From: a virus | Lineage: Duplodnaviria > Heunggongvirae > Uroviricota > Caudoviricetes | Virus record (IMG/VR): IMGVR_UViG_3300029533_000034 | Length of the DNA: 64,000 bases | Strand: one strand, 5' to 3' | Shown here: piece after piece, positions 634 to 62,186 of the stretch | How positions within the stretch are numbered: position 1 is the stretch's first letter | Layout: each line of letters starts with the position of its first letter | The notes under the pieces: model-generated | Told to the model about the DNA's origin: nothing | Seen by the model: only the letters and a program-made list of their open reading frames with translations | Databases searched by the model: none | Made by a program: the position numbers and the translations under genes

Positions 634-705
634 ACAATCCAAATATCACATTAAAGAGAGGGAAAAATTTTCCTCTCTTTTTTTTATAAAATTTTCCAAA
701 ACTCT

Positions 706-8631: not shown

Positions 8632-8695
8632 ACAAGACCGCACGAAGCGGCACAAAAACCATATAAACATGACAAAGTACAGGGAGATTAAAAAA

Positions 8696-10999
8696 ATGAA
8701 TCAGAATAAGAAGATAGCAGAGAAAAAATCAAGACCATACCAGCAGGAATGCATTGATAAGGTAGATAGCTTAAAAGAAGGAAGATTCCTGATTGCTCTT
8801 GCAACAGGGCTTGGGAAGACATGGATCTTCTCCCACTTTAAGAGATACGGAAGGGTACTTATTCTTTCACACAGGGATGAACTGGTCAACCAGCCGAGAC
8901 GGTATTTCGACTGTAGTTTTGGCGTAGAAAAGGCAGAAAACCATTCCAATGGGGAAGAGGTAGTATCTGCGAGTGTTCAGACACTCAGCCATGACTCCCG
9001 TCTTAAGCAGTATAAGCCGGACGATTTCCACACGATCATCATTGATGAGGCGCACCACGCTGCCGCACCATCCTATAAGAAGATCTTAAATTATTTTTCC
9101 GGCGCTAAGCGTGTAATCGGTGTCACGGCAACTCCGAAGCGTGGCGACAACGTCCGGTTAGATGACGTTTTTAACGAGATTATTTATGCAAAGGATCTTC
9201 GTTGGGGGATTAAAAATAAATATTTAAGTCCGGTGCACTGCCGGGAGGTCCGTGCAAAATATTCCCTGAAAGGCGTAAAAAAATCTATGGGGGATTTTAA
9301 TGTATCCGATTTGGACGGTTGTATTACGGAAGAAGCTGTAATAAGTGTTGCAAAAGTTCTTACAGACTGTCTCCAGGAGAATCGGCATATTCTTATTTAT
9401 TGTACTACTGTCAGAACCTGTAATTTCCTGAAGGCAGTAGTTGACAAACTGCTCCCGGAAAAAGAACGTGGCAGTGTTGCTGTTTTATCAGGGAAAACAC
9501 AGGAAGAAGATAGAAAAAATATGCTTGATGGTTTTATGAACGGGAGTGTCCGCGCCATTATTAACTGCATGGTTTTAACAGAAGGTACAGATCTTCCTAT
9601 TGCGGATACCATTATCAACTTCCGGCCGACGTGCAACGCGTCTTTGTATCAGCAGATCATCGGAAGAGGAACCCGGCTCTATGAAGGTAAGGAAAACTGT
9701 TTATGCATTGATATTCTTCCAGATGATGGCAGCGGGACAAGAAATCTGTGTACAGCTCTTACTCTTTTTGGTATAGATGCAAAACTTCTTGGAAAGAAAC
9801 AGTCTCGAATGCTTGAAGGTGAGATTGATCCGCTTGAGATTAGCGATGAAATTGCAGGACGATTTGCAGAACTTACAAAGGCGTATGAATATCGGTTGGA
9901 GCAGGTTAATCGCTTTGTGCAGGAGCAGGAAGAAATTATATCTTCTGCGCGGAAGAAACCACATGCAGATTTAAGCGACCTTGCGCATGCAGTAGATAAA
10001 TATAATTCAAAGAAAATGGATGAATTCCAAAATGATTATGATTTTCTTGGAATGGATTACTCACTTATGCCGGATACGGAACATCGTTATTGTATCAAAC
10101 CTACATGGAATGACCATATTTACCTTGCTGATCCAGATGTTATGGGTAATACAACAGTTACGTTTGATCTTACTGCCAGTGTCGGGAAATATTATATCGG
10201 TGAAATGAAAATGCAGGATGCAATTTCATTTGTTCATGATTTTTGTATGGTATCTCCAGATTATATGAAATATTCCTGGAACGTGGCATTACAAGATGAA
10301 TGGGGGAAAATAAAAGCAACTGAAAATCAAATTGGACGTCTTATGAATGAGTATGACGGGTTTCACAAAGGAAATATTAACAAGCTCCAAGCATCCAGAC
10401 TGATTGATCTTGCCTCTCGTATTTCGAAGATGAAGGCAGAGGGGAAAATGATGCTTATTACACCAAGAATGCAGGAAAAAACAATTGATAAAAAAAAGAA
10501 AATGTTTAAGGAAATACTCGAAAAGGAACTGAGGGCAAAAGAGCAGGGGCGTAGTGAGTTTGGAGAATTCCAGTCGAAAATCTTTGCTTTGGCAGAAAAA
10601 AAGAAAAAAGACGAAGAGAAATTAAAGAACCAAAAGCCTTTGGAAGAAGAAATGCTCGAAAATGGGGCAATTACAGTTAATATTGCTGTTTTTAGTTCAA
10701 AAAAAACAGCAAGCGATGCGCAGATAAAATTTCTTGGTAATTTAAAAGATAAATTAAAAACCAGAGGAGTGGCTGTTGATAAAAAAATTCCTTATATAGG
10801 AATGGGAGCAGAAGAGGCAAGTGTATATATTACTATATTAAAAACGCTTGTAGATCGTAACGTAGACCTTATAAAATATGGGGAAAAAATTTATTTTAAT
10901 CCAAATACAATCATGGGTGTTGTATTAAAACTAAAGGACACTTCATCCAGAGAAATTAAATGTTGTGTCCCGTTCGAAAAAATAGAAGAATTGAGATAA
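8696..10999 (+). CDS. SF2 (DEAD/DEAH-type) helicase with long K/E-rich C-terminal extension
   Basis: motifs GLGKT (I), IIDEAHH (II), GVTATP (III), QQIIGRGTR (VI); GGGAG RBS at the 8696 ATG. Confidence 0.8.
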   Translation: MNQNKKIAEKKSRPYQQECIDKVDSLKEGRFLIALATGLGKTWIFSHFKRYGRVLILSHRDELVNQPRRYFDCSFGVEKAENHSNGEEVVSASVQTLSHDSRLKQYKPDDFHTIIIDEAHHAAAPSYKKILNYFSGAKRVIGVTATPKRGDNVRLDDVFNEIIYAKDLRWGIKNKYLSPVHCREVRAKYSLKGVKKSMGDFNVSDLDGCITEEAVISVAKVLTDCLQENRHILIYCTTVRTCNFLKAVVDKLLPEKERGSVAVLSGKTQEEDRKNMLDGFMNGSVRAIINCMVLTEGTDLPIADTIINFRPTCNASLYQQIIGRGTRLYEGKENCLCIDILPDDGSGTRNLCTALTLFGIDAKLLGKKQSRMLEGEIDPLEISDEIAGRFAELTKAYEYRLEQVNRFVQEQEEIISSARKKPHADLSDLAHAVDKYNSKKMDEFQNDYDFLGMDYSLMPDTEHRYCIKPTWNDHIYLADPDVMGNTTVTFDLTASVGKYYIGEMKMQDAISFVHDFCMVSPDYMKYSWNVALQDEWGKIKATENQIGRLMNEYDGFHKGNINKLQASRLIDLASRISKMKAEGKMMLITPRMQEKTIDKKKKMFKEILEKELRAKEQGRSEFGEFQSKIFALAEKKKKDEEKLKNQKPLEEEMLENGAITVNIAVFSSKKTASDAQIKFLGNLKDKLKTRGVAVDKKIPYIGMGAEEASVYITILKTLVDRNVDLIKYGEKIYFNPNTIMGVVLKLKDTSSREIKCCVPFEKIEELR

Positions 11000-11069
11000 T
11001 AATATTATATTAAAAATAAAAGGTTGATACTATGTATAAAAATAAATACAATATTCTTTTAAAAAAATT

Positions 11070-11108
11070 TTGACGATTTTTAAGATGACGCAATATGTGT
11101 ATTGTAAA
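11070..11108 (+). promoter_or_regulatory. recurring phage promoter, copy 3
   Basis: TTGACG...GACGCAATATGTGT. Confidence 0.5.
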
Positions 11109-11247
11109 GGTTATAAACCGAGCTGCCAGGGTTACCGGCTGGCAGAAATCCTTTCGATATTTGTTTACGCTTCCGGGTAATACCCGAAAGGGATAGTGAG
11201 GACACAGCGTAAGCTGTTCTGGGTTCGACTCCCGGATATCTCTTTTT
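11105..11247 (+). ncRNA. structured ~140-nt RNA, family copy 2 (3' hairpin is GGGTTCGACTCCC, i.e. a canonical tRNA T-arm)
   Basis: paralog of 8490, 33063, 36227. Confidence 0.55.
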
Positions 11248-11286
11248 TAAATGAAATTACAGAAAAAACAATATGGAGGGAAAAAG

Positions 11287-11631: not shown

Positions 11632-11866
11632 GTTGCACCCCGCAAGGGTGCAGGGTTGAAATATTATACTGAATCGTCGCTGCCTGCATAGATATAGTTG
11701 CATCCCTTATGGGATGTATGGGTTGAAATTCAATAGAAACAGATGCATTCGGAGGTGTTACAAGTTGCACCCCCGCAAGGGGTGCATGGGTTGAAAATAA
11801 GAAATGGTAGGAAGGAATTCAGATATGAACATTAGTTGCATCCCGCAAGGGGTGCAGGGGTGAAAT
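11632..11866 (+). CRISPR. CRISPR mini-array 1: 4 degenerate type I-C-like repeats (GTTGCACCCCGCAAGGGGTGCATGGGTTGAAAT), 3 spacers of 34-37 nt
   Basis: repeat/spacer periodicity read directly from the sequence. Confidence 0.8.
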
Positions 11867-16112: not shown

Positions 16113-17117
16113 ATGAATACGTTGGAAAATTTAGAAATGGTATTGTTTGACTTTGATGATACGCTGTGCATACATAATCATCGCTCGGATGCTTATGAGG
16201 AAATGATGGAATATTTGTCATATATTCATTCAGGTGAAACATTTCCAAAATCATGGAATAAAGCAAAACCGAATTTGCAGTTAAAGAAATTCATGGATTA
16301 TCTTGCTTATAAGAATATCCCTATGGGTTTAATTAGCGGAGTGCGTGATTGTAAGACTGCGGAAAGAAAGATCAAATGGGTTAAAGAAAATTACGGTTAT
16401 TTACTGGAAAATTACTGTGTATCCAGTCAGGAACAGAAGATTATTGAACTTAAGGTCCTTGCAAAGGTTAACAGGCTTCATGAAAATCAGATTGCTATTA
16501 TTGATGATATGTATTCAAACCTTGAAAAAGCAGAAAGTGAGGGATTCATTGCTCTTTCCCCAATGCAGGTTGTTAATTTGTTTAATGAAACATCTGAACA
16601 AAAGTCTGCTGCAAGGATTATACCAGATTGCGATTTTCAACTGTATAATGAATTGAAAAATAAATACATATTCTGGGATATAGACAGCACTTTAGCGGCA
16701 TACAGGTTTAACGGGCATGTTTCAGATCCGGAAGGTACCGATAATGGTATGAGTTTAAAAGAAATCGAGGATGGGGTTTTTCTTAAGAGGAAGCCGTCCT
16801 GTCATATGCAGATGGTGTTGTCTACATGTGGCGCGAAGCAGAACATTGTGATGGGGCACTGCCAGGTGCAAAAAGAAATGGATGATAAACAGCTCTGGCT
16901 GGACAAGTATTATCCAAGTATCACAGATCGTTTACTTGTATCGGAAAACAAATCAAAAGCAGATACCATTTTGCAATACTGTAAGGATCATGATATTAGC
17001 TTGCAAGATGTAGTATTTGTAGACGATGTGATTTCATTTTTACGTGAAGCAGAGCGAAAAGGAATTGAATCATTTCATATCAGTAGTTTCCTGGATTGGG
17101 ATTTCGAAAGGAGGTAA
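16113..17117 (+). CDS. tandem HAD-superfamily hydrolase (two DxDxT motifs: DFDDT and DIDST)
   Basis: AGGAGG RBS; HAD motif I present twice. Confidence 0.6.
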   Translation: MNTLENLEMVLFDFDDTLCIHNHRSDAYEEMMEYLSYIHSGETFPKSWNKAKPNLQLKKFMDYLAYKNIPMGLISGVRDCKTAERKIKWVKENYGYLLENYCVSSQEQKIIELKVLAKVNRLHENQIAIIDDMYSNLEKAESEGFIALSPMQVVNLFNETSEQKSAARIIPDCDFQLYNELKNKYIFWDIDSTLAAYRFNGHVSDPEGTDNGMSLKEIEDGVFLKRKPSCHMQMVLSTCGAKQNIVMGHCQVQKEMDDKQLWLDKYYPSITDRLLVSENKSKADTILQYCKDHDISLQDVVFVDDVISFLREAERKGIESFHISSFLDWDFERR

Positions 17118-17121
17118 CATA

Positions 17122-18192
17122 ATGGATTTATGTATTGACTACAACTTGTTGTTTGCAGAATTAAAGAAACATGGTTTCTGCCTTGGTTTTTCAACAATTG
17201 AGGATGTTGCGCTTTCAAAGGAGCAGGTGGATTACTGGCATCGTGGAAATTTTGTTTGTTATGTAAAATCGAAGGGATTAATTGCAACTTATGTATGCTT
17301 TATTACCGGTGATGAATTGAAAGATGAATTCTCTACTTATAAGAGTGTTCATGAGCATTTGAATTTCACAGATACTATAGAAACTCAGCGGAGACCATCA
17401 ATCGTTGAAGCATTTGAAAACGTTTTATTTACCAGTTATTCTGATGCAGTTGCTAAATATAAGCAGATGCTTGCTGTTTTTCCAAAATTTACACCAGCAT
17501 TTAAAGAATTGTTTGCAGAAGAAATGGATGCTCTTGCAGTATCTAATACGTCAATTCAGGTTAAACCTGATTTGTCGAAAATTTATATAAATAAAGAGCA
17601 TGAATATTGTTACATCTCAGCTGTTACACCGGATAGTGTCTGCGTTAAGCGACTCACCGATGCATCTTTTGACAAAGAGCTGGATTATCGTGAATTGCAG
17701 CAATACACTGCCGTTCCAGAAGTTTTTGACGAATTACGTTCACTTTTGTTAACAGTATTACACGGTCTTTCTTCTGTTATCAAGATAAATAATCTGCCCG
17801 AAGATAACAGTGTTTCTTTGAAATATTATAATGAAACAGATGAATTCGGTGATGTAACAACATATACTGTAGTTGGTCAAAATTTCGAATTGATCCTTAC
17901 AAATATGCTTGGTGCTTCCTGTTATTTGAGTGATAAGTCTTGTATACATGATTCAGATAATGAGTGTCACGCATACGATATTGCTGATGTTTTTTCAGCA
18001 AATGCAAAAGCCAAACGTATTCATGATTTTCTTGTAAAACTCATGAAAGAGTTTGCTCCTATTTTAGCAGGTGACCTGGCATTGCGGAAGCAGCTTTTCG
18101 ATTATTTGTATACACTTGAGGATGGTGATAATTCCGTTAATGCGCAGCAACTAGGGTTGCCAGATAATACGGATTCTTTGCTTCATAAATAG
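17122..18192 (+). CDS. hypothetical protein
   Basis: AAAGGAGG RBS. Confidence 0.55.
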   Translation: MDLCIDYNLLFAELKKHGFCLGFSTIEDVALSKEQVDYWHRGNFVCYVKSKGLIATYVCFITGDELKDEFSTYKSVHEHLNFTDTIETQRRPSIVEAFENVLFTSYSDAVAKYKQMLAVFPKFTPAFKELFAEEMDALAVSNTSIQVKPDLSKIYINKEHEYCYISAVTPDSVCVKRLTDASFDKELDYRELQQYTAVPEVFDELRSLLLTVLHGLSSVIKINNLPEDNSVSLKYYNETDEFGDVTTYTVVGQNFELILTNMLGASCYLSDKSCIHDSDNECHAYDIADVFSANAKAKRIHDFLVKLMKEFAPILAGDLALRKQLFDYLYTLEDGDNSVNAQQLGLPDNTDSLLHK

Positions 18193-27149: not shown

Positions 27150-27228
27150 GCAGCCAAAACACAGTTCCATATTCATGATATAGGACTGTGTTTTTTTGTA
27201 AGAAAATAAATAAAATTTTAAATTTCCT

Positions 27229-27265
27229 TTGACGAATTTTGAGATGGATAAATATATATACTGAA
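27229..27265 (+). promoter_or_regulatory. variant copy of the recurring promoter (TTGACG...GGATAAATATATATACT)
   Basis: -35 and spacing conserved; the GCGCAAT block has diverged. Confidence 0.4.
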
Positions 27266-30258: not shown

Positions 30259-30333
30259 TGTGTAAGAAAAGAGCCTTTGGACGAGGTTCTTTTTTTTATT
30301 TAAAAAAAATTTTCAAGAAATTTCTGATTTTCT

Positions 30334-30372
30334 TTGACGATTTTTCAAAAGGCGCAATATGTGTAATGAAGA
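30334..30372 (+). promoter_or_regulatory. recurring phage promoter, copy 5
   Basis: TTGACG...GGCGCAATATGTGT. Confidence 0.5.
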
Positions 30373-32970: not shown

Positions 32971-33027
32971 ATTGAAAAGGATCAAGCAGGACACGGTGTA
33001 AGTTTTTTAAAAGCTCTCTAAGCTTCT

Positions 33028-33066
33028 TTGACATTTCAGGAGATGGCGCAAGATGTATCATGTAAA
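33028..33066 (+). promoter_or_regulatory. recurring phage promoter, copy 6
   Basis: TTGACA...GGCGCAAGATGTATCATG. Confidence 0.5.
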
Positions 33067-33205
33067 GACCATAAACCGGGCTGCCAGGTTACCGGCTGGC
33101 AGAAAACTCTTTCGATATTTGTTTACGCTTCCGGGTAATACCCGGAAGGGATAGTTGGTTCGCAGCGTAAGCTGTTCCGGGTCCCATTCCCAGATATCCC
33201 TTTTT
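33063..33205 (+). ncRNA. structured ~140-nt RNA, family copy 3
   Basis: paralog; loop and stem substitutions preserve the hairpins. Confidence 0.55.
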
Positions 33206-33275
33206 CAAATGAAATTACAGAAAAGTCTGGCGTCGTCCACACGATTCGTGCCCGTGAGCAAAGAGAACAAAGGAG

Positions 33276-34984: not shown

Positions 34985-35012
34985 TCTCCGCCAAATAAGA
35001 CGGAGATTTGAA
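34985..35012. terminator. bidirectional terminator hairpin (aatctccg...cggagatt)
   Basis: 8-bp inverted repeat flanked by A and T runs; sits at the 3' end of the minus-strand gene. Confidence 0.45.
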
Positions 35013-35014
35013 AA

Positions 35015-35635
35015 TTAACATATTAATTCGTAGTCGTACAGATCGAGCGGCGTTTTGTTTCCGCTGGACCACTCAAACTCTTCGTTGTCCCAAATGCTGC
35101 GGGCGTTGTTCAGATTGATCTCATCCGTCAGTACCTTTTCTTCGATATTAATGAACCGTTCCAAAGATTCTTTGAAGCGGTTGATGACTTCCTCGGGATT
35201 CTTTGAATGCCAGCTGTATTCGTCGAAAAACCTTCCACTGGCGGTAATTGTTAATTCCTCGCCGTTATCCGACAATCCAGACAATTCAAATGTAGCGTCT
35301 TCCTCGGAAATATCGCTATAATATTCGCCAGGTTTATTGGTATCGTTGATTTTGTTCCCAAGTCCTTCCGCTTTTTCCATCAGGTCATAAATTTCCTCTG
35401 GAATCGTAAGGTAATCTTCCGGATAGTATTCCACGGTTGGCTTGATTTCTTCGATCGGAAGCTTTTCAACGAAATCGTCTCCTTTGAAAATAGCAAAAGA
35501 GTTCATACCTCTTGCGCTGATCTCAACTTTCCCGCATTTGCATGGGAATATTTTTAAAAGTCTTCTATCTCGAGTGTCATAAGCTACTGAAAAAATGCCG
35601 CATTCTTTGCATTTAAAATTTCTTTGTGTTTTCAT
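35015..35635 (-). CDS. hypothetical protein with N-terminal zinc ribbon (CKECG...CKCG); the only minus-strand protein gene
   Basis: internal ATG (MKTQRNF) with GAAGGGAGAAAAA RBS; longer ORF start overlaps the plus-strand promoter. Confidence 0.55.
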   Translation of the reverse strand: MKTQRNFKCKECGIFSVAYDTRDRRLLKIFPCKCGKVEISARGMNSFAIFKGDDFVEKLPIEEIKPTVEYYPEDYLTIPEEIYDLMEKAEGLGNKINDTNKPGEYYSDISEEDATFELSGLSDNGEELTITASGRFFDEYSWHSKNPEEVINRFKESLERFINIEEKVLTDEINLNNARSIWDNEEFEWSSGNKTPLDLYDYELIC

Positions 35636-35718
35636 GATTTTTCTCCCTTCATCAATGGTTTTATTTACACTTTTAATATGAAATATTAAACATATTTCAA
35701 AAAATTTCCCGGAAATTT

Positions 35719-35757
35719 TTGACGAAATTTCAAAAGGCGCAATATATGTAATGAAAG
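35719..35757 (+). promoter_or_regulatory. recurring phage promoter, copy 7
   Basis: TTGACG...GGCGCAATATATGT. Confidence 0.5.
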
Positions 35758-35872
35758 GAGGAGGAAATACAAATTGGAATGTTTGACATGCAAGAAACAC
35801 TGATCGCAGGGAGGCCGCTGTTCAGAGAACGTGAGAAACTGCCTGCATTATGAGGAAGAACCAAGAGGAAAA

Positions 35873-36106
35873 ATGGTCCGGACAGAACTGTCTTTTCGTA
35901 TGGATGCAGAGGCGGAAACTCCGGTGGTCAGATTTGGAGAGAAAATACTGGTTTCCGATGGTTCAAAAGCGGTCGAGATGACTGTGATCAAGATCAACTG
36001 GGTTAATCTTCGGGATATGCTCTGCAATGTATCCGCGGATTATCATGAGAATGAGATGCCGCGATTTGAGAAAGAAAAGAAGTTCAATGTAGTTGAGAGA
36101 AAATAG
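35873..36106 (+). CDS. small hypothetical protein whose stop codon abuts a solitary CRISPR repeat
   Basis: AGAGGAAAAATG RBS. Confidence 0.45.
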   Translation: MVRTELSFRMDAEAETPVVRFGEKILVSDGSKAVEMTVIKINWVNLRDMLCNVSADYHENEMPRFEKEKKFNVVERK

Positions 36107-36136
36107 TTGTACCCTATGCGGTGCATGGGTTGAAAC
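36106..36136 (+). CRISPR. solitary CRISPR repeat unit (GTTGTACCCTATGCGGTGCATGGGTTGAAAC)
   Basis: single repeat with an intact hairpin and no adjacent spacer-repeat units. Confidence 0.5.
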
Positions 36137-36190
36137 TAAAGTCACATTTAACATGAAACAAAATTTTTTCAAAAACTTTCAAAATTCCCT

Positions 36191-36229
36191 TGACGAATCC
36201 CCAGATGGCGCAATATGTATCATGTAAAG
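36191..36229 (+). promoter_or_regulatory. recurring phage promoter, copy 8
   Basis: TTGACG...GGCGCAATATGTATCATG. Confidence 0.55.
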
Positions 36230-36365
36230 GTCATAAACCGAGCTGCCAGGGTTACCGGCTGGCAGAAATCCTTTCGATATTTGTTTACGCTTCCGGGGAA
36301 ACCCGGAAGGGATAGTGAGGACGCAGTGTAAGCTGTTCCGGGTCCGATTCCCGGATATCCCTTTT
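36227..36365 (+). ncRNA. structured ~140-nt RNA, family copy 4
   Basis: paralog of 8490, 11105, 33063. Confidence 0.55.
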
Positions 36366-36645
36366 AACTGCCGCAGGTGGTCTTCTCAAATTCAGCTGTC
36401 TGCGGCCTGTGGGATTTCCCACTGAACCAAAATAACGATAACCGCCAGAATTACAGCAGCGTGCGTTGGCGTGAGAACTATCGGCGCACAGGGATTACTC
36501 CTTTCATATTTATCTATCACACCTTTTCGTACATCGTATGGAGAGGCTGTGGAACAGCAGGTGCGTAGCCACGGGCTATTCCGGGATCGTTCCCCAGATG
36601 TTCCATTTTTAAAACATTAAAACAAATTACAGGAGGAAAATAGCG

Positions 36646-37368
36646 ATGGAAAAAGAAGTGGTATATGTCGCAGAACTGGATTCCGATGTTGACGATGTCG
36701 TTGCAGCAAATTACTTATATAATGAAGGGGTCTTAAAATGCGTAGTATGTGACCCATATCCAAGGACACCGGAGGGATTGGCACGAAAGGGAAAGCTGGA
36801 AGCGCTTGGCATCGATGTGGTTAAGAAAATGCCACCGGTTGCAAAATATGTGTTTGTTGGCGGCGCACTTACGGCTGTTGCTGGCTATATCCGGATGCAC
36901 CATGTCGACTGGCTGGTAATGAACGGAGGCTTTGTTGGAGCAAATATTGCGACCCTTGAACTGGATAAGTTCAAGGGGAAGAACACTGTCCGTACCTTCA
37001 ATTTCAACTGCGATGTTGTGGCTGCAGATACGGTTTTGAAAACTGATGAGAAGCATATTTCTCATATTGTTCTTGTTGGAAAGAACGTCTGCCACGATGT
37101 CCGGAATACGAGGAATGGTATCTGGAGTGGCGAGAAATACAAGAAATTGTTTGATGAGTACCGCGTTAAAGATGAGAAGCGTCAACATGACCTACTTGCC
37201 TGCCATGAGGGACTTGCATTCCTGCGGGGAACCAGTAAGATCTGCGAGTATGAGACAGTAAGGCCGTACAATACAGGTTTGAATGGCAAGCTGACACAGT
37301 GGGGCAGCACAAAAACTATGGAAACACCATATCGCGAAGTGCTTGCCGCTGTTGGCTATCGGGATTAA
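36646..37368 (+). CDS. nucleoside hydrolase (IunH/RihA-like) family protein
   Basis: N-terminal Asp cluster ELDSDVDDVVA, plus MNGGF...GAN...TFNFNCDVVAA...VL...HD, colinear with the IU-nucleoside hydrolase motifs DxDxxxDD, MGG..GN..EFN..DPEAA. Confidence 0.5.
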   Translation: MEKEVVYVAELDSDVDDVVAANYLYNEGVLKCVVCDPYPRTPEGLARKGKLEALGIDVVKKMPPVAKYVFVGGALTAVAGYIRMHHVDWLVMNGGFVGANIATLELDKFKGKNTVRTFNFNCDVVAADTVLKTDEKHISHIVLVGKNVCHDVRNTRNGIWSGEKYKKLFDEYRVKDEKRQHDLLACHEGLAFLRGTSKICEYETVRPYNTGLNGKLTQWGSTKTMETPYREVLAAVGYRD

Positions 37369-37370
37369 AA

Positions 37371-37679
37371 GTTACACTCCGCGAGGGGTGTATGGGTTGA
37401 AATTGAATAAATAATGCATCATAAGATATTCCAAATTGTTGCACCCCGCGAGGGGTGCAGGGATTGAAATAAAAGAACCTCTTCGATTCCCGAACACCCT
37501 TGTCTAGGTTGCACCTCGTAAGAGGTGTATGGGTTGAAATCCGGATCTGCTCTGCGGTTAGCATGGCACCACGTTGTTGCACCCTGCGAAGGGTGTATGG
37601 GTTGAAATGTGTTACCATTCCATCTTCTCCACGTCTAACTCTAGTTGCCCCCCCCCGCGCGAGGGGCGCATGGGTTGAA
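37371..37679 (+). CRISPR. CRISPR mini-array 2: 5 degenerate repeats, 4 spacers (34-37 nt); starts 2 nt after the stop codon of the hydrolase gene
   Basis: read directly from the sequence. Confidence 0.85.
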
Positions 37680-37789
37680 ATTGATTTACAGCCGGGGCAA
37701 GAAAATGTACGCTACAAAGTCCTTTCGCACCTGTCTTTTCTGTGGTATACTAAAAGAATAAAAGATATATCCAAGGAGAAGGTTAAAGG

Positions 37790-38662
37790 ATGAGAAAAAG
37801 CATAAAAGATTTTGGAAATTTTGTGAGAAAAGATAATTACCCGGGACTTCCGGAAGAACTGAAAGAGTTTAACTATTTTTTGAGTGATGGGGAAACTGGT
37901 CATGTAATCATGGCTGTGCCGGAACACAAGTTGGAGAAGGCGGAAGAAAAAGGGGATAATCTGGATGACTATGAATGTCCGGTTCCGGTGGCATATGTTC
38001 TTAAGAATGGGTACCGGCTGTATAAGGACCATGTAATATGTCAGGTTCCGTACGATGAGAAACTGGGGATACGTATTCCGGAAGAATATTACGAACCATT
38101 GATCATTTCTACAGATGCCGGGAAAGCAGAGGAGCCGACATCCGGAGAGTTCCCTTATGAGAAAGGAAAATGCTATCCGGAATTTACAAACCATGCAGAA
38201 GCTGTAGTTGCGGACATCGTTAAGGATTACGTGCAGATTCGCGTATTTTTCAAAAATCCTACAGAAAACGAGATTGCACAGTTTTCTCCGGATTCCAGAC
38301 TGGAAATCCGTTTTACAGAGATGGATGGGACCGGTCTGTTTACCGTCAAAGCTGGCAATTTGTCATGGATGGACGCACCATACCATGCGAAACTTGCAAA
38401 AGATTTGTCAGGATTCAATTTTACAGCAAAAGGTGAAATCCCACTGTATCTCCTCCTGATCGACTCGTCGATTGGTGAAGTTAAAGCGGTTCGAAATGTC
38501 CATCTGTCAGAAGAGTTTTCGGGAAAGTTGAGAAATCTGGTGGATCGTCAGATTAACTCTGATTTTGATAGGAAGAAATATGCTGATATCCTGTCCAATA
38601 TTTACCTTCTATTCGGTTCAGATGAGCTGGCGGATGCCAGTACCATTAAGTGCCAGTGGTAG
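37790..38662 (+). CDS. hypothetical 290-aa protein sandwiched between CRISPR arrays 2 and 3
   Basis: AAGGAGAAGG RBS. Confidence 0.6.
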   Translation: MRKSIKDFGNFVRKDNYPGLPEELKEFNYFLSDGETGHVIMAVPEHKLEKAEEKGDNLDDYECPVPVAYVLKNGYRLYKDHVICQVPYDEKLGIRIPEEYYEPLIISTDAGKAEEPTSGEFPYEKGKCYPEFTNHAEAVVADIVKDYVQIRVFFKNPTENEIAQFSPDSRLEIRFTEMDGTGLFTVKAGNLSWMDAPYHAKLAKDLSGFNFTAKGEIPLYLLLIDSSIGEVKAVRNVHLSEEFSGKLRNLVDRQINSDFDRKKYADILSNIYLLFGSDELADASTIKCQW

Positions 38663-38682
38663 GTAAGAAGATATACTTTACT

Positions 38683-38903
38683 GTTGCGCCCCATTGGGTG
38701 CATGGGTTGAAATCTGAAACCGAATAGATTGGATAGGACAGGCTGAGGTTGCACCCCGCGAGGGGCGTATGGGTTGAAATAGTCCGGACAATCAAAAACG
38801 ATATCGAAGAGCTGTCGTTGCACCCTGCGAGGGGTGTATGGGTTGAAATTGCAGAAAGATCAGGATTGGAAGGTTGCATCCTATGGGATGCATGGATTGA
38901 AAC
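38683..38903 (+). CRISPR. CRISPR mini-array 3: 4 degenerate repeats, 3 spacers (34, 36 and an unusually short 23 nt)
   Basis: read directly from the sequence. Confidence 0.8.
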
Positions 38904-38939
38904 GAACATATTTGTTATTATTTATTATTGAGATCAGAA

Positions 38940-38978
38940 AGGTCTGCAGTCAGTTAATCTGGCTGCAGATTTTTTTTG
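38940..38978 (+). terminator. rho-independent terminator (tctgcagtcag...ctggctgcaga + T8)
   Basis: inverted repeat plus T-run. Confidence 0.5.
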
Positions 38979-39006
38979 CAATTTTTCAAAAATTTTCCAA
39001 AATCTT

Positions 39007-39045
39007 TTGACGATTTTTTAAAAGGCGCAATATACATATTGAAGG
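39007..39045 (+). promoter_or_regulatory. recurring phage promoter, copy 9, directly upstream of cas5c
   Basis: TTGACG...GGCGCAATATACAT. Confidence 0.55.
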
Positions 39046-39086
39046 GATAAACAGGGGCTTGCCGCTGTTGATTACCAGAGTTAAAA

Positions 39087-39114
39087 GTTGTGCCCCTATG
39101 GGGTGCATGGGTAA
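39087..39114 (+). repeat. degenerate CRISPR-repeat-like element in the cas5c 5' UTR (GTTGTGCCCCTATGGGGTGCATGGGTAA)
   Basis: the 5' 24 nt match the repeat consensus; the 3' handle has diverged. Confidence 0.35.
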
Positions 39115-39126
39115 TAAGAGAAAGGA

Positions 39127-39801
39127 ATGGAAAAAGAAAAAATGGGAGTGAAACTAAAAGTCTGGGGAGATTATGCATTGTTCACCAGACCGGAACTGAA
39201 AACAGAACGGTATACCTATGACGTGATGACTCCGTCGGCAGCTAGGGGGATTCTGGAATCCATCTACTGGCATCCGGGATTACGGTGGTACGTAGATAAA
39301 ATCCACGTATTAAATCCGATTGCCACTACAAGCGTAAGAAGGAATGAACTTCTCAGCAAGATACCGAAATCAAATATGTTACAGGCATATAACGGCGGCG
39401 ATGTCAAGCTGTATAATTCGTCAAGAGACGATATTATCCAGAGGGCATCCGTGATCCTCCGTGATGTCAGCTACGTGATTGAAGCACATTTTGAAATGAC
39501 GGACAAGGCAAGCCCGACGGACAGCCCGGCGAAGTTTATCAGCATCTTTAATAACAGGGCAAGAAAAGGGGCGTGCTATTCGATGCCGTATTTCGGGGTA
39601 AGGGAATTTCCGGCACACTTTGAACTCTATGAAGGTGATGAAAAGATCCCATCCTGTTATGAAAGACTTCCGGACAGGGATTTCGGGCTGATGCTTTATG
39701 ACCTGGATTATTCCTGCGGAAGAGATATCCAGCCAATGTATTACCATGCAGTTATGAAAAATGGCATCATTGATGTCGGGAACAGTGAGGTGTTTCGATG
39801 A
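39127..39801 (+). CDS. cas5: type I-C Cas5c (Cas5d) crRNA-processing subunit
   Basis: N-terminal region VWGDYALFTRPELKTERYTYDVMTPSAARGILESIYWHP matches the Cas5d family signature. Confidence 0.9.
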   Translation: MEKEKMGVKLKVWGDYALFTRPELKTERYTYDVMTPSAARGILESIYWHPGLRWYVDKIHVLNPIATTSVRRNELLSKIPKSNMLQAYNGGDVKLYNSSRDDIIQRASVILRDVSYVIEAHFEMTDKASPTDSPAKFISIFNNRARKGACYSMPYFGVREFPAHFELYEGDEKIPSCYERLPDRDFGLMLYDLDYSCGRDIQPMYYHAVMKNGIIDVGNSEVFR

Positions 39802-41537
39802 TCCTGCAGTCACTTGTAAAATTATATGAAACGCTTGCAGACCAGGGGAAAGTATCCCGTCCCGGCTGGTGCAATGCAAAGGTATCCTATGCAGTGGTGT
39901 TAAACCACGATGGGATAATCCAGGATATTGTTTCCGTAAAGCAGGAGATACAGAGAGGGAAAAAAACTGTTGAAATTCCGACAGTTATGCAGGTTCCAGA
40001 GATGGTCACCCGGGGTAACAACATTGCTTCCGGCTTTCTCTGCGAAAATGCAAAGTATCTCTTTGGAATTGATGAGAAGATGAACCCGCGTACGCTTGAC
40101 TGTTTTAAAGCAGCAAGGAAGAAACATCTTGATATCCTTGATGTCGTGGATGAGTCGGCAGCACAGGCAGTGTGCCGCTTTTTCCGTTCATGGGATCCGG
40201 AACAGGCACTGGATCACCCGGCAGTTGCGAAGCTTGCGGAAAAGTTTTATAAAGGCGGGAACCTCGTATTTGAGGTAGACGGCAAATATGTGCATGACAA
40301 TGAGGCCGTGCGCAGAGCATGGCTGGATTACAGCAGCGTACCATATGAAATGGTAACAGGAAGATGCCTGGTTACCGGGAAGAAAGCAGAGATTGCCCGC
40401 ACACATGGGAAGGTCAAAGGAGTGCCGGGAACACAGTCATCCGGTGCGGCGCTTGTATCCTTTAACGGCGCGTCCCTTGAGTCTTATGAGAAAACACAAA
40501 GTTATAACGCGCCGATCAGCACCTATGCGGCGTATGCATATGTGACAGCATTAAATTACCTGCTTTCCACGGACGGGTACCACAGCAAGGTAGGAGATTT
40601 CATGGTGGTCTTCTGGACGGATTCCGGGGATGTGGATGATGTAAGCAGACTGCGGAAGATGATGGGGAGCGCCAATGAAAAAGATCATGTCCTTGCAGAT
40701 CCGGATGAAAAACTGTACGTGCTCTGTCTTGCACCGAATGCCGGCAGAATTGCAGTCCGGTTCTTCTATGAAGATGCCATCGGAGTGATCTGGAAGAACC
40801 TGTTGGAACATGCCCGCCGGATGATGATCATAAAGCCGGCGTTTGAGGATCAGGAATTCATCAATATCTGGCAGATGCTTATGGAGACGGTAAACCAGAA
40901 CCTTACAGACAGGACCCCGGTTCCGCATATGGCTGCGATGACGTTACAGTCGGTCATTTCGGATACCAAGTATCCGCAGAGCCTGTATGCAGGAGTGCTG
41001 TCCCGCATCCGTGCCGAGCACAAAGGCGTTACTTACAGAAAAGCAGCGGTCATCAAGGCTTTTTTAATAAAGAACTATAAATGGGAGGAAGGGAAAAATA
41101 TGGAAGTATTAAACGAAGACTGCAGAGACCGTGCGTATATCCTCGGCAGGCTGTTTGCGGTAATGGAAAAGACACAGAAGGAAGCAATTGATAACATCAA
41201 CCAGACGATCTGTGACAAGTTTTACAATTCCGCATGCACAACGCCAGGATCGGTATTTCCGGTGCTGATCAGACTGTCCAACAGTCATTTAAGCAAGCTG
41301 AAACGCACAAAGCCGGGCAGAGGATATTATTTTGCGGCTAAGATCCAAAGTTTGATGGGTCTGATTCCGGTTACAGCGGATGATCCGGGGTTCCCGAAGC
41401 GTTTCACGTATGAGGATCAGGGCAAATTCGCACTTGGTTATTACCACCAGATGCAGGCAGAATATACAAGCAATAAGTCAAAAGACAGCGATCCTGAAAG
41501 CAACCAGACAAATGCAGAGAAGATGGAGGAAAACTAA
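39798..41537 (+). CDS. cas8c: type I-C Cas8c (Csd1) large subunit
   Basis: N-terminus MILQSLVKLYETLADQGKVSRPGWCNAKVSYAVVL matches Csd1; ATGA start/stop overlap with cas5. Confidence 0.9.
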   Translation: MILQSLVKLYETLADQGKVSRPGWCNAKVSYAVVLNHDGIIQDIVSVKQEIQRGKKTVEIPTVMQVPEMVTRGNNIASGFLCENAKYLFGIDEKMNPRTLDCFKAARKKHLDILDVVDESAAQAVCRFFRSWDPEQALDHPAVAKLAEKFYKGGNLVFEVDGKYVHDNEAVRRAWLDYSSVPYEMVTGRCLVTGKKAEIARTHGKVKGVPGTQSSGAALVSFNGASLESYEKTQSYNAPISTYAAYAYVTALNYLLSTDGYHSKVGDFMVVFWTDSGDVDDVSRLRKMMGSANEKDHVLADPDEKLYVLCLAPNAGRIAVRFFYEDAIGVIWKNLLEHARRMMIIKPAFEDQEFINIWQMLMETVNQNLTDRTPVPHMAAMTLQSVISDTKYPQSLYAGVLSRIRAEHKGVTYRKAAVIKAFLIKNYKWEEGKNMEVLNEDCRDRAYILGRLFAVMEKTQKEAIDNINQTICDKFYNSACTTPGSVFPVLIRLSNSHLSKLKRTKPGRGYYFAAKIQSLMGLIPVTADDPGFPKRFTYEDQGKFALGYYHQMQAEYTSNKSKDSDPESNQTNAEKMEEN

Positions 41538-41538
41538 T

Positions 41539-42450
41539 ATGAGCAAACCGATTCAGAACAAATATGATTTTGTAGTATTATTTGACGTAGAGAATGGAAA
41601 CCCAAACGGCGATCCGGATGCTGCAAACATGCCAAGGGTTGATCCAGAGACCGGCATCGGTCTTGTGACAGACGCCTGCTTAAAGCGAAAGATCCGCAAC
41701 TATGTGGAAACAGCAAAGGAAGATGCAGACGGTTTCAAGATCTACATCAAAGAGGGTATTCCGTTGAACCGCAGCGATCTTAAGGCAATCGAAAACCTTG
41801 GTGTTGATGTTGATGACAGTAAGAAGGCACTTGAGGATGTCAAGAAACTGAAAAAGACCGATGAGAACGTAGACCTTAAGCTCCGTGACTATATGTGCAG
41901 CAACTACTACGATATCCGTACGTTCGGTGCTGTTATGACCACTTTTACAAAGGCGGCATTAAACTGTGGGCAGGTACGCGGCCCGGTACAGATTGGCTTT
42001 GCAAAAAGTATTGATCCTGTTTTCAGCCAGGATATTACTGTAACCAGAGTTGCGATCACAACCGAAAAGGATGCCGAAAAGAAGAACACCGAGATGGGAA
42101 GAAAGAGCATTATCCCTTATGGTCTCTACCGCGTGGAAGGATATGTTTCTGCCAACCTTGCCCGCAAGACCACCGGTTTTTCCGAAGATGATCTGGATCT
42201 TCTCTGGAAAGCCATCATCAATATGTTTGAAAATGACCATTCTGCAGCACGCGGGAAGATGGCGGTACGTGAGCTGATTGTATTCAGGCATGACAGCGAA
42301 CTCGGCAACTGTCCTTCCTACAAGCTGTTTGAAGCAGTTGATGTCAAGAAGAACGATGATGTCGAGTTTCCTCGCAAATACTCTGATTACACCGTAAAGA
42401 TCCATGAGGATGCAATCCCGGGTGGTGTGACGATGACGCGCATGATTTAA
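41539..42450 (+). CDS. cas7: type I-C Cas7c (Csd2) backbone subunit
   Basis: N-terminus MSKPIQNKYDFVVLFDVENGNPNGDPDA is the Csd2 signature; the ORF-track start at 41380 is an in-frame upstream extension. Confidence 0.9.
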   Translation: MSKPIQNKYDFVVLFDVENGNPNGDPDAANMPRVDPETGIGLVTDACLKRKIRNYVETAKEDADGFKIYIKEGIPLNRSDLKAIENLGVDVDDSKKALEDVKKLKKTDENVDLKLRDYMCSNYYDIRTFGAVMTTFTKAALNCGQVRGPVQIGFAKSIDPVFSQDITVTRVAITTEKDAEKKNTEMGRKSIIPYGLYRVEGYVSANLARKTTGFSEDDLDLLWKAIINMFENDHSAARGKMAVRELIVFRHDSELGNCPSYKLFEAVDVKKNDDVEFPRKYSDYTVKIHEDAIPGGVTMTRMI

Positions 42451-42470
42451 AAGTGCTTCCGGCAGCCACA

Positions 42471-42497
42471 AAGCAGCCCGTTTTTTGAGGGCTGCAC
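42471..42497 (+). terminator. terminator hairpin (gcagcccg-TTTTTTGA-gggctgc)
   Basis: inverted repeat with internal T-run just after cas7. Confidence 0.45.
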
Positions 42498-42698
42498 CTG
42501 CCGGTTGTATTGGGATGCCTGGTCCAGGTGCGAACCGGAGACGTACGTAGTTTCCAGAGGAGGTTCGCACGGGGGTGAGAAGGCGAGATGTACAAGAGAG
42601 CGAGAATCCCAACCACGGGAGGCAGTTGTGGATGGGTTAATTAGGGAAATTGTTTAATATTTTGGCGGACAGGAAACAGGTTTCCGTTCGCGTTTACA

Positions 42699-43130
42699 GT
42701 GGCGCCCGTGGAGGGGCGCATGGGTTGAAACAAATTAAAATGAGGAACACCATATTTTTCACGTTGTACCCCCCCCAACGAGGGGGGTACAAGGGTTGAA
42801 ATTCCTGTGGCAAATCCATAAACAGCGCGAGTTGCACCCCACAAGGGGTGCAAGGGTTGAAATAGAAGTGTAATGTAAAATCTCCATGCTCTATTCAGTT
42901 GCACCCCACAAGGGGTGTATGGGTTGAAATATATAAAAATGATGAATATGTAAAAATAAAAGAGTTGCATCCCTTATGGGATGTATGGGTTGAAATCACT
43001 GCTGCCCTTTGTATCTTCTCCGTGGTAAAACGTTGCATCCCTTATGGGTGCATGGGTTGAAAAGATTGTGACAAATCCATATCTTCGGGGAAGGTAGTCG
43101 CGCCCGCGAGGGGGTATATGGATTAAGGAA
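42699..43130 (+). CRISPR. CRISPR mini-array 4: 7 degenerate repeats (31-40 nt, last one decayed), 6 spacers of 28-35 nt
   Basis: read directly from the sequence. Confidence 0.85.
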
Positions 43131-43194
43131 AATAAATTAGAAAAAATGAGTAATTGCTGAAGGATGATCTTCCGATTATTATCGAGGATGAGAC

Positions 43195-43340
43195 GGTCTG
43201 GATGTAGTCGTACAAAAGTTGTTCCGGAGTGTATGCCGACAGCATCGGGCAGGGCATGGTCCAGGAACTTGATCCGGACGGAAAGCCGAAGCTGTATACT
43301 GTGGATGTTAACGAGCTGATCCAAAAATTTCAAAAGTAAC
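43195..43340 (+). pseudogene. duplicated 3' fragment of the lipoprotein gene 22987-23373 (about 80% nt identity), no start codon
   Basis: direct alignment with 23228-23373. Confidence 0.5.
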
Positions 43341-43424
43341 TCGCTGTAAAAGCTGTCTCTTTCAGGGGCAGCTTTTTTGTATGTGGGAAAATTTTTAAAA
43401 AAATAAAAAAGTTTCCATAATCTT

Positions 43425-43463
43425 TTGACGATTTGGAAGATGGCGCAATATGTATATTGTAAT
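43425..43463 (+). promoter_or_regulatory. recurring phage promoter, copy 10
   Basis: TTGACG...GGCGCAATATGTAT. Confidence 0.5.
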
Positions 43464-43546
43464 GGATAAACATGGAGTTCTTTTAAATCTTAATTTAGTT
43501 AACTCAATGTTTAAAAACATTACAGTAACAGTAACGGAGGGAAAAT

Positions 43547-53088: not shown

Positions 53089-53190
53089 GTGGCGGTAGCT
53101 CAGTCTGGTAGTAGCACTCCTGTATGGCATCGTAAATGCGTGTAAGGAACCATGCAGGTGTTGTCGGAGGTTCAAATCTTTCCCGCCACA
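53089..53190 (+). tRNA. atypical ~102-nt tRNA-like gene: canonical acceptor, D- and T-arms, but a 9-bp stem with 22-nt loop in place of the anticodon/variable region
   Basis: acceptor gtggcgg/ccgccac; D-arm TAGCTCAGTCTGGTAG; T-loop TTCAAAT; no standard 7-nt anticodon loop identified. Confidence 0.4.
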
Positions 53191-55659: not shown

Positions 55660-55767
55660 AACAAAAATAAGAAAGGATTGTAGTGATATACTAATGTTGT
55701 AACAGAAGTGCCTAATTTCACAAAAATTTTAAAAGCTGGTTAATTTTAAAAACTTTTCAAGATTTCC

Positions 55768-55806
55768 TTGACGTTTTTTCAAATGACGCAATATTTATAG
55801 TACAAG
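55768..55806 (+). promoter_or_regulatory. recurring phage promoter, copy 11
   Basis: TTGACG...GACGCAATATTTAT. Confidence 0.5.
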
Positions 55807-61013: not shown

Positions 61014-61218
61014 GATCCAAAAGAAAGGCACCCGAAAGGATGTCTTTTTCTTTGCAAAAATGTATATATACGCTATAATCGCATAATTATATCTACTATG
61101 AGCATGGAATTTTCAACAAATACCAGGCGAACGATGACATTCTCTACGAGGATGCCTTCGGCAACATCGTCATCCAGACGGAATCCACAGACCGGAACAG
61201 TAACAGCTTTTCCGCACT

Positions 61219-61249
61219 ATAGGGTATAATGGGATGTATGGGTTAAAAT
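61219..61249 (+). repeat. solitary half-degenerate CRISPR repeat (3' half ATGGGATGTATGGGTTAAAAT matches the consensus)
   Basis: alignment to the repeat consensus. Confidence 0.35.
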
Positions 61250-62186
61250 GCAATCAGGCTGCGGATGCTACCGGCTTGTTGCGCCTTATGAGGCGCATGG
61301 ATGGGAACTGCGGCAGCCAGTTTCTTGCTTTGAAATGTCTCACATGGCATCGTCTTCACCTTGTTGAATGCATGACCAGGGAGAAAACTTATCTTATCTC
61401 CAATCTTTATCTGAAATTCAGCGAATTGCAGATGCTTGAAGGAGATGACCAGCCTTTCTGCGATATATATGGCGCTACATTTTCCAGTGTATTAATGGAA
61501 TACCTTTCCCCGGAAGAAATTTTAGCTTCTTCCGAAGAAGATCTGATTGCATTACTTGCTGAAAAAGCCGCAACCGCATTAAGGATATAAGCAAGACCGC
61601 AGATTTATTAAAGAAAGCTGCCAGAGATTCTTATCGTCTGGATAAAGCTCTTTATGAGCCTTTAAATGTGTCTATTGCCAGTTCTTTCAACTGCATTGAA
61701 ACCTTTAAAAGAGAAATCAAAGCCATTGACAATGTTATCGAAAAGGAAATCAAAGGTTTGAACCCAAATGCCTTTATTATTCTTCAATCTATTGATGGCA
61801 TCGGTCCTGTCTTTGCTGGTTGCATAATTGCTGAAATAGGCGATATAACCGCTTTTCATTCATCTGATGCTCTTGCCAAGTACGCCGGTCTCACATGGAA
61901 ATCCAACCAGTCCGGTGATTTCGACGGAGAAGATACTCCCATGATAAAAGCCGGTAATCGTTATCTGCGATACTATATTGGCGAAGCTGTCAACAGTATG
62001 AGAAAACACAACGTTGAGTACAGAGTGTACTATCGGAAGAAGTACAATGAAGTTCCGAAACATCAACACAAAAGAGCACTCGCGCTGACTTCACGCAAAT
62101 TCGTTCGTTTGGTTTATGGATTGCTGGCCAGAAACCAACTGTACTCCGGCGTATCGCTGGATACATCAATTAAAGATTCTAACTAG
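61234..62186 (+). mobile_element. IS110-family transposase remnant (C-terminal domain intact in ORF 61668-62186; upstream part frameshifted; N-terminal DEDD domain absent)
   Basis: LQSIDGIGPVFAGCIIAEIGDITAFHSSDALAKYAGLTWKSNQSGDF...KAGNRYLRYYI is the IS110/IS116/IS902 C-terminal signature. Confidence 0.55.

Follow-up and report, generated by a model that had tools for sequence, protein, structure and literature searches.

Solitary type I-C CRISPR repeat units in a large gut phage as candidate Cas5c processing sites in mRNAs, one of them in the leader of the phage's own cas operon

Solitary or remnant CRISPR repeat units lie at three sites in a 64,000-nucleotide (nt) stretch of the tailed-phage record IMGVR_UViG_3300029533_000034 (hereafter the window), which also encodes the type I-C proteins Cas5c, Cas8c and Cas7. 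One unit (unit 1) overlaps the stop codon of a small gene, a second (the leader unit) lies in the 5' untranslated region (UTR) of cas5c, and the third site stands beside an IS110 remnant (Table 1). The reading that we favour, and which we rate as not quite an even call, is that the lone units are array-derived sites at which Cas5c would process mRNAs, and that the leader unit would act on its own cas operon. The leader unit is probably a site where the phage Cas5c cuts or binds its own message. This reading draws on family membership, positional conservation, compensatory variation of the stem, retention of the Cas5c determinants and co-linearity with genes, all taken from sequence comparison. 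An earlier sequence-only reading of this DNA had listed processing sites, with Cas5c acting on the cas leader, among several explanations; it is the best fit, the stem and UGG being kept in every locus that covers the leader, and cleavage itself is predicted.

All lone units are members of a single type I-C repeat family, which counts at least 24 repeats in the window, every one of them on the plus strand. Type I-C repeats have a stem of ~7 bp, a loop of 3–5 nt, a 2-nt 5' overhang (GU) and an 11-nt 3' tail ending in UUGAAAC/U. To score units, we used a covariance model trained on 19 array units only and run on both strands (128 kb) with filters off. Array units themselves score 38–53 bits, and four matches fall outside the arrays. 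Within any one array all repeats differ; the 8-bp hairpin is kept through compensatory changes and the tail ATGGGTTGAAAT is near-invariant. Double changes occur at six of the eight stem pairs among the 19 units. Across 49 distinct units of the clade, 94.8% of stem cells pair and seven of the eight pairs have changed on both sides (30 cells), a level of stem covariation reached in 0 of 500 shuffles; the alignment was fitted to the covariance model, so these counts lean towards structure. The [U]GG that follows the stem is near-invariant as well (U in 41, G in 48 and G in 47 of 49 distinct rows of the alignment, a count that includes gaps and one partial match on the reverse strand). Such unlike repeats with compensatory changes are unusual for CRISPR arrays. 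Because neighbouring repeats are never identical, no canonical acquisition at a leader end is apparent, and repeat diversity may protect against repeat–repeat recombination or reflect growth by cassette exchange rather than acquisition.

The leader unit reads GTTGTGCCCCTATGGGGTGCA up to the predicted cut and TGGGTAATAAG after it. The covariance model matches it at 39087–39115 (21.3 bits, E 6e-3 over 128 kb), between the promoter-like box at 38971–39043 and the cas5c start. Where the sequence-only reading had placed a degenerate repeat at 39087–39114, between promoter and ribosome-binding site (RBS) in the cas5c 5' UTR, the location is right and the unit extends to 39118. It forms a fully paired 8-bp stem (two G.U pairs) with a UAU loop, and this hairpin is present, in canonical form, in the minimum-energy folds. 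UGG is kept after the stem, and degeneration is confined to the final 6 nt of the 11-nt handle.

To follow the unit through related loci (numbered with L below), we collected diverged lineages through homologues of Cas5c, of a 290-aa neighbour and of the small protein, plus one DNA-pattern scan of metagenomes; the near-identical copies L002–L011 keep everything and are uninformative. A leader unit is found in every related locus covering the cas5c 5' region (~40 loci), always as one unit and never as an array. Its stem occurs in two main versions and a minor variant. Type I, in the window and the L017 group, pairs TGTGCCCC with GGGGTGCA over 8 bp. In the variant, type I' (L046), one G-to-T change removes only the loop-closing pair, leaving a canonical 7-bp stem with a pentaloop. 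Type II (L012, L013, L024, L036, L039 and L047) reads GTTGCATCTTCGGATGTA before the cut and TGGAT(G/A)ATGA(G/T)G after it, with a 6-bp stem (TGCATC/GATGTA) and a UUCG loop. Three one-sided, pairing-preserving changes, one double change and a symmetric loss of 2 bp per arm separate types I and II, with zero mismatches. Both types keep GTTG at the 5' side and, at the 3' side, the A before and the TGG after the cut; both have lost the TTGAAAT part of the handle, which is TGGGTAATAAG or TGGATGATGAG, the distal 6 nt not being conserved. The remainder of the leader is barely alignable between the two types, in contrast to the aligned block 38919–43539 that takes in the cas genes, where L012 and the window share 97.6% identity. 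We found neither stem among the array units of the loci examined and hence saw no gene-conversion donor. Position 39142 (ATGGGAGTG), not 39127, is the most likely start of cas5c, since in L012 and L024 the first ATG lies in another frame.

What the leader unit keeps and what it has lost can be compared with studied enzymes. Recognition by BhaCas5c is centred on the base of the stem and on U22-G23-G24, UGG being the main cleavage determinant, SmuCas5c tolerates changes further downstream, and contacts with the handle serve Cascade assembly (PMC8524198). With stem and UGG kept and the distal handle lost, the leader unit would retain what cutting needs, without what Cascade loading needs. The phage Cas5c is close to the Cas5c structure of D. 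vulgaris (PDB 7kha, 1e-66), keeps the invariant catalytic Lys ('AKF' aligned to 'GKH') and keeps the Tyr in SIYWHP. Its nearest bacterial homologues, 62–67% identical, are from Lachnospiraceae and Clostridiales. Pfam and NCBIfam matches to cas5c, cas8c and cas7 bear out the earlier statement that the element encodes its cognate Cascade. Among the open reading frames (ORFs) scanned in the 64-kb window we found no cas3, cas1, cas2 or cas4, and the effector operon consists of cas5c-cas8c-cas7 only. A helicase at 8621–10999 was considered as Cas3 and rejected: it is RadD/ResIII-like, is not similar to the Cas3 of L014 and lacks an HD domain.

The arrays of the family are laid out along genes. Arrays A, B and C and unit 1 begin 0–40 nt past the stop of a protein gene, array D ~250 nt past that of cas7, and no array has a promoter box of its own. 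Relatives differ in how many units a site holds, from 1 to 6. At site B, the window has five units, the L017 lineage has two, and the type II lineages L012, L024, L036, L039 and L047 have a single decayed one; at site C, the four units of the window correspond to three in L017 (6894–7045), six in L046 (7815–8148) and one in type II lineages (L012 3306–3337). The terminal (first and last) units of array C stay, and internal repeat–spacer cassettes are exchanged among relatives. Since units sit after genes and their number per site is fluid, we take a lone unit to be the minimal state of a gene-appended array site.

Unit 1 (GTTGTACCCTATGCGGTGCATGGGTTGAAAC, 36106–36136) has one exact match in the window, where none is expected by chance, and the TAG stop at 36104–36106 ends in its first G. 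It had been called a single intact repeat on the small gene's stop; its position, the stop overlap and its uniqueness hold, and intactness does not. Its covariance score of 28.5 bits (E 8e-5) lies 10–25 bits below those of array units (38–53 bits), which marks it as repeat-derived yet not fully intact. TGG follows the stem, and the full 11-nt handle, TGGGTTGAAAC, is present. Within 100 nt of 36106 or of 39087 the window holds no second unit, so that neither place qualifies as an array, which takes two or more repeats with spacers of ~30–40 nt between them; the L017-lineage counterpart of unit 1 does qualify.

In all lineages the repeat begins at the G of the small gene's TAG stop, despite differing last codons. 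Type a (the window, L012, L046 and L047) has the stem TGTACC/GGTGCA, and in type a' (L048 and L039) the second arm is GGTACA, turning a U.G pair into U-A. Type b (L017 group; stem TGCATTCC/GGAATGCA) is followed by a 38-nt spacer, a well-formed second repeat and an extra 91-aa gene on the opposite strand, and type c (L049–51; stem TGCATTCC/GGGATGCA) by an apparent decayed second repeat. Types b and c have the canonical predicted fold. Where L017 has 462 nt (spacer, second repeat and gene), the window has 33 nt (36110–36142), and its unit 1 is thus a collapsed array or one that never expanded. Six type-a lineages show 5–13 variable sites per 40 nt in the small gene, against five in the 205 nt from 36076 to 36280. 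Unit 1 itself has a single variable site among them, 36123 G to A, which replaces U.G by U-A and improves canonical pairing.

The small gene that ends in unit 1 encodes 110 aa in most relatives, with an N-terminal, zinc-ribbon-like CxxC...C...C extension; the L048 copy has an internal deletion. The protein has no Pfam, NCBIfam, PHROG or Protein Data Bank (PDB) match, solved anti-CRISPR (Acr) structures included, and its AlphaFold model is unusable (pLDDT 37.6). Scanning the genome contig collection with GTGYATGGGTTGAAAY returned chance single matches only. From the small gene to the next promoter box we found no terminator-like site.

Taken together with the layout of the genes, these features suggest the following mechanism. 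Repeat units are appended to protein genes, 1–6 per site, and would be co-transcribed with them. In the cas operon, Cas5c would cut or bind the 5' UTR of its own message at 39107/39108; a cut there, ~34 nt ahead of the cas5c start, would take off the 5' leader and could tune the fate of the cas mRNA or its expression. As to the sign of such regulation, negative feedback would be a guess. Unit 1 is read as the first, anchoring repeat of a mini-array site at the small gene's 3' end; this lineage has that one unit only, and it still appears to be under sequence constraint. It is most likely still a processing site, which would separate the small-gene mRNA from the downstream transcript and set its 3' end. 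A wider form of the proposal is that the clade has co-opted CRISPR repeats as general mRNA punctuation, Cas5c cutting between cistrons and also at a hairpin in its own 5' UTR that has lost guide loading, which would give RNA-level autoregulation of the Cascade operon; we regard this wider form as possible and doubtful.

Several observations weigh against processing by Cas5c. In the enzyme, a Phe stands at the position of the general-base His of the Dvu and Smu Cas5c proteins, and catalytic activity of the phage protein is predicted from its residues; this His position varies among Cas5c proteins, and only the Lys is invariant (PMC8524198). At the leader, the two main stems and the minor variant mean that covariation there rests on very few evolutionary events, and the stem may have been replaced by recombination from an unsampled repeat elsewhere in a genome of 240–356 kb. 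Unit 1 can form 6 bp including one G.U, and its minimum-energy fold (ViennaRNA) is an alternative one: in type a, CAUGGGU pairs with ACCCUAUG (-12.5 kcal/mol), burying UGG. The conserved block around unit 1 also holds the next promoter box, and its conservation may not be due to the repeat. The small gene, moreover, looks expendable: in the window its extension (TTG at 35774, after a strong AGGAGG) is cut by a TGG-to-TGA change at 35801–35803, and an internal ATG start remains, giving the 77-aa form. Finally, we infer cleavage, its efficiency and any regulatory effect from sequence.

The strongest competitor to processing by Cas5c is neutrality: recombination, deletion and insertion sequence (IS) activity would have turned arrays over and left the lone units behind as relics with no present function. 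Decay of this kind does occur in this genome, as the B-site unit of the type II lineages shows: it has stem mismatches, AGA in place of UGG and a score of 10.5 bits. The third lone-repeat site is another case. The sequence-only reading had reported a solitary half-repeat at 61219–61249 next to an IS110 remnant; the half-repeat and the remnant are there, and a second, degenerate unit at 61278–61308 had been missed. The half-repeat, unit 3a (GGGATGTATGGGTTAAAAT), is matched at 61200–61249 with 16.7 bits (E 0.1), has no predicted hairpin and is identical in 24 of 26 nt to the array A unit at 11709–11734, including the first bases of the following spacer. Unit 3b (GTTGCGCCTTATGAGGCGCATGGATGGGAAC; 23.6 bits, E 1.5e-3) has a canonical predicted hairpin of 6–7 bp, TGG after the stem and the handle TGGATGGGAAC. 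The transposase remnant covers positions 191–342 of the 343 of the NCBIfam IS110 model, is frame-shifted, lacks the DEDD domain and is 28% identical to residues 260–391 of the intact IS110 transposase of L019. Site 3 is a decayed two-unit mini-array truncated beside this remnant, and it is probably inert. Conservation is uninformative here, because the fetched relatives are 99.9–100% identical at the site (at least 98.8% over the aligned region).

Neutral turnover would also account for the fluid unit number, for the 462 nt that L017 has in place of the short stretch after unit 1, for the low score and in silico misfolding of unit 1, and for the IS110 and IS30-like insertions that are polymorphic around arrays. 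It fits site 3 and the fluidity of the arrays, not the leader unit, which every relative has, its stem fully paired in both main versions although the flanking sequence has diverged. Unit 1, in turn, is more conserved than the adjacent coding sequence and its only substitution improves pairing, and UGG is kept in units 1, 2 (the leader unit) and 3b and lost in the decayed B-site unit. The earlier suggestion that the lone repeats are decay products of former arrays thus applies to the third site and in part to unit 1, which heads a two-repeat array in the sister lineage, and does not suit the conservation of unit 1 and the leader unit, which exceeds that of neighbouring coding sequence. The sequence-only reading had proposed absence from close relatives as the sign of pure decay; both unit 1 and the leader unit are present in relatives. 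As an explanation of the lone units, neutral turnover is, in our judgement, unlikely.

The insertions around the arrays deserve a description of their own. Otherwise near-identical phages differ in the insertions they carry, which are full-length IS110-family elements and one element, possibly IS30-like, whose 437-aa product has an HTH_38 domain (L003 1927–3535, at window 35756/35757; L019 2709–4328, at window ~36501; L004 4302–6000, at window 37697–37713). Targeting of repeats by IS110 was considered and rejected, as the full copies in L003 and L019 lie outside repeats, at window 35756 and 36501.

A second alternative is that unit 1, and perhaps others, is a decoy of the RNA anti-CRISPR (Racr) type, titrating Cas5c/Cas7 of a host type I-C system and expressed together with a small anti-defence protein. 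The order seen here, in which an unannotatable, small and fast-evolving gene directly precedes a type I-C solitary repeat, mirrors acrIC5-racrIC1 (PMC10651486), a bicistronic pair lying 11 nt apart (PMC10651486). The Lachnospiraceae and Clostridiales homologues of Cas5c indicate that plausible hosts carry type I-C, and a promoter-like box lies ~350 nt upstream of unit 1. Against this, the phage's own Cascade, encoded 3 kb off, and more than 19 functional-looking repeats would be poisoned too; the sister-lineage counterpart of unit 1 heads an ordinary repeat–spacer–repeat array; and the small protein resembles nothing, solved Acr structures included. A decoy fits poorly with a phage that encodes the cognate Cascade, though the pairing of small gene and type I-C repeat does resemble acrIC5-racrIC1, and we hold it to be improbable.

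The type I-C protospacer-adjacent motif (PAM) is TTC. That the units are guides of the CreR/crlRNA type, each with its downstream pseudo-spacer directing Cascade to partly complementary DNA and repressing the cas promoter or other genes, appears very improbable: conserved repeat-like elements by cas promoters do regulate types I-B, I-E, I-F and V-A (PMC10120712; 10.1101/2023.03.10.532045), Cascade may act as a repressor where no cas3 is seen in the window, a spacer of array D in the L017 lineage has 15 nt in common with the cas promoter box at its -35 region, and site 3 has a short 28-nt spacer with TATAAT just upstream of the handle, but within the 64-kb window no pseudo-spacer of a lone or terminal unit has a TTC-flanked seed match (12 nt, at most 2 mismatches) or, in this part of a 240–356-kb genome, any match with at most 9 mismatches in 32 nt, and the 'spacer' of the leader unit is its own RBS and start codon with AAG, not TTC, at the PAM position. 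We found no support in these sequences for DNA-targeting, CreR-like regulation, nor any for a regulatory, crlRNA-like role of site 3. The array D spacer just mentioned, ACCAAAATCTTTTGACATTCTTATAAATGGTAACA (L017, also L018–L023, L035, L042 and L045), matches with its positions 2–16 the 15 consecutive nt at window 38997–39011; the PAM side is TTT and ~0.1 such matches are expected by chance, and it could be a CreR-like partial match or a spacer acquired from the promoter box of a relative.

Viral solitary repeats, regulatory mini-arrays of cas loci and lone repeats upstream of cas12a have all been described (PMC10651486, PMC10120712, 10.1101/2023.03.10.532045, 10.1101/2024.10.29.618823), and the units reported here share features with each. 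Like RacrIC1 by acrIC5, among Racrs and solitary repeat units (SRUs) (PMC10651486), unit 1 is a lone type I-C repeat-like hairpin in a phage, after a small gene on the same predicted transcript; unlike them, it belongs to a phage that encodes the matching Cas5c, Cas8c and Cas7 as well as four arrays, and it anchors an array site in sister lineages. Racrs are solitary repeats of mobile elements that mimic the repeat of the host, inhibit its CRISPR-Cas and are not associated with cas genes, whereas here the cognate cas5c-cas8c-cas7 lies 3 kb downstream on the same strand. They have a promoter within ~250 bp upstream and often an acr gene beside them; at unit 1, the small gene stands between the repeat and a promoter-like box whose end is 350 nt upstream. 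The CreR, CreA and crlRNA elements (PMC10120712; 10.1101/2023.03.10.532045; PMC9458426) are likewise degenerate, conserved repeats by a cas promoter suspected of tuning cas, and the leader unit shares with CreR the conservation of a repeat-like element among related cas loci. Those elements, however, work as small RNAs in their own right and bring the effector to promoter DNA by means of a partly matching spacer, whereas the leader unit lies in the 5' UTR of the cas mRNA, in the sense strand, with no PAM-flanked target in the window and with the parts for RNA cleavage, not those for guide loading, conserved.

The SRUs upstream of cas12a in type V-A (PMC10120712) resemble the leader unit in being low-identity lone repeats before the gene of their own processing enzyme, conserved in a clade and with no evident spacer target; they differ in CRISPR type and enzyme, the case in the window being phage-borne and type I-C. 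Virus-borne mini-arrays in inter-virus conflict, as summarised in PMC10120712 and PMC10651486, are also short viral arrays with spacers that match relatives; the repeats of the window, unlike those, all differ within an array, and the arrays stand between protein genes without leaders of their own. The nearest functional analogue is synthetic: Csy4 (Cas6f) hairpins engineered into mRNAs put the site of a CRISPR endoribonuclease into a 5' UTR or between cistrons, as in the mechanism proposed here, as a tool that controls stability and translation (PMC4604432). In the literature we found no natural repeat-derived endoribonuclease site in the 5' UTR of the operon encoding that endoribonuclease, no arrays used as inter-cistronic elements and no natural RNA-level autoregulation of a Cascade operon.

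Table 1 Lone repeat units, mini-arrays and associated genes and elements in the window
Feature	Position	Strand	Remarks
Solitary repeat unit 1	36106–36136	+	predicted Cas5c cut 36125/36126
Small gene (77-aa form)	35873–36106	+	ends in unit 1
Promoter-like box (repeat family D1), upstream of small gene	35683–35755	+	putative promoter function
Leader unit, repeat-derived hairpin	39087–39118	+	predicted cut 39107/39108
Promoter-like box (repeat family D1), upstream of cas operon leader	38971–39043	+	putative promoter function
cas5c	39142–39801	+	Pfam Cas_Cas5d 9e-38, TIGR01876 3e-49; ORF also readable from 39127
cas8c (csd1)	39798–41537	+	Pfam Cas_Csd1 8e-161, TIGR01863
cas7 (csd2)	41539–42450	+	Pfam Cas_Cas7 3.5e-106, TIGR02589; called as 303 aa in relatives
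Unit 3a, 3' half-repeat	61219–61249	+	5' stem arm missing
Unit 3b, degenerate full unit	61278–61308	+	28 nt past unit 3a
IS110-family transposase remnant, C-terminal domain only	61668–62186	+	172-aa ORF; Pfam Transposase_20
Mini-array A	11632–11866	+	4 units
Mini-array B	37371–37681	+	5 units; starts 3 nt past stop of gene 36646–37368
Mini-array C	38683–38903	+	4 units; starts 21 nt past stop of gene 37790–38662
Mini-array D	42699–43130	+	6 units and a degenerate terminal unit; downstream of cas7

The window is part of a large phage that is common in human-gut metagenomes, with contigs carrying identical proteins of up to 241 and 356 kb, and ten tRNA genes are clustered in it. Megablast of 35000–43500 against the phage GenBank collection gave no match, and tblastn with Cas5c against that collection gave only MT836695 and one 26% match. 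MT836695 is a host-like 9-kb type I-C locus with a 770-aa ORF upstream of cas5c, at the usual place of cas3, and without a leader unit. The sole Cas5c match in IMG/VR, L001, has a truncated cas5c followed, from upstream to downstream, by a complete-looking cas operon and an array of identical repeats, and looks host-derived. Distant homologues of the 290-aa neighbour (P0123 and P0124) sit in phages without cas genes. At the three lone-repeat sites, Rfam returned nothing.

Some spacers have matches in phage DNA. The one after unit A2 (11730–11761) matches in 24 of 32 positions the phage's own gene 17044–18192, at 17827–17858, which suggests, at the level of sequence, that it may target the homologous gene of related phages and that the resident copy escaped. 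In L021 the array D spacer TTTTAAAAGTGCGACGGAATTAATTAAGG matches L035 12056–12084 in 28 of 29 positions, consistent with possible phage–phage targeting. A search of IMG/VR returned no targets for either of two spacers tried and no copy of this phage. The sequence at 42620–42650 (GTTGTGGATGGGTTAAT), 75 nt upstream of array D in a 250-nt GC-rich and apparently structured region after cas7, looks like a repeat with its hairpin deleted.

The 73-nt D1 box (TTGACG ... GGCGCAATATGT) occurs ten times in the window (670–742, 8418–8490, 11034–11106, 27193–27265, 30298–30370, 35683–35755, 36154–36226, 38971–39043, 43389–43461 and 55732–55804). A simple sigma-70 scan does not score it as a promoter, and it may be a phage-specific promoter class. 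The copy before the cas operon is preceded by a terminator-like hairpin (38936–38976). Four copies of a structured non-coding element of ~165–210 nt directly follow a promoter box (8424–8635, 11040–11250, 32998–33208 and 36160–36369), and a related structure lies at 36400–36612. Each of the four copies ends in a hairpin like a tRNA T-arm (TTCCGGGTCCGATTCCCGGA), and there is a weak partial Rfam match to the tRNA-like part of Deinococcus Y RNA (RF01053; 28 bits, E 0.006 in a 561-nt search). A further tRNA-like Rfam match of 102 nt (53089–53190, 33.6 bits) was not called by ARAGORN and may be a tRNA with an insertion.

Two explanations of solitary repeats are current: anti-CRISPR decoys and DNA-targeting regulatory guides. 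If the proposal holds, the leader unit would stand for a third, a repeat that serves processing only, is conserved by compensatory changes in the stem and lies ahead of the genes of an operon that encodes its own processing enzyme. The endoribonuclease activity of Cas5c would then serve as a post-transcriptional feedback sensor. Arrays and protein genes would alternate on a single phage transcript, in a natural parallel to engineered Csy4 insulators.

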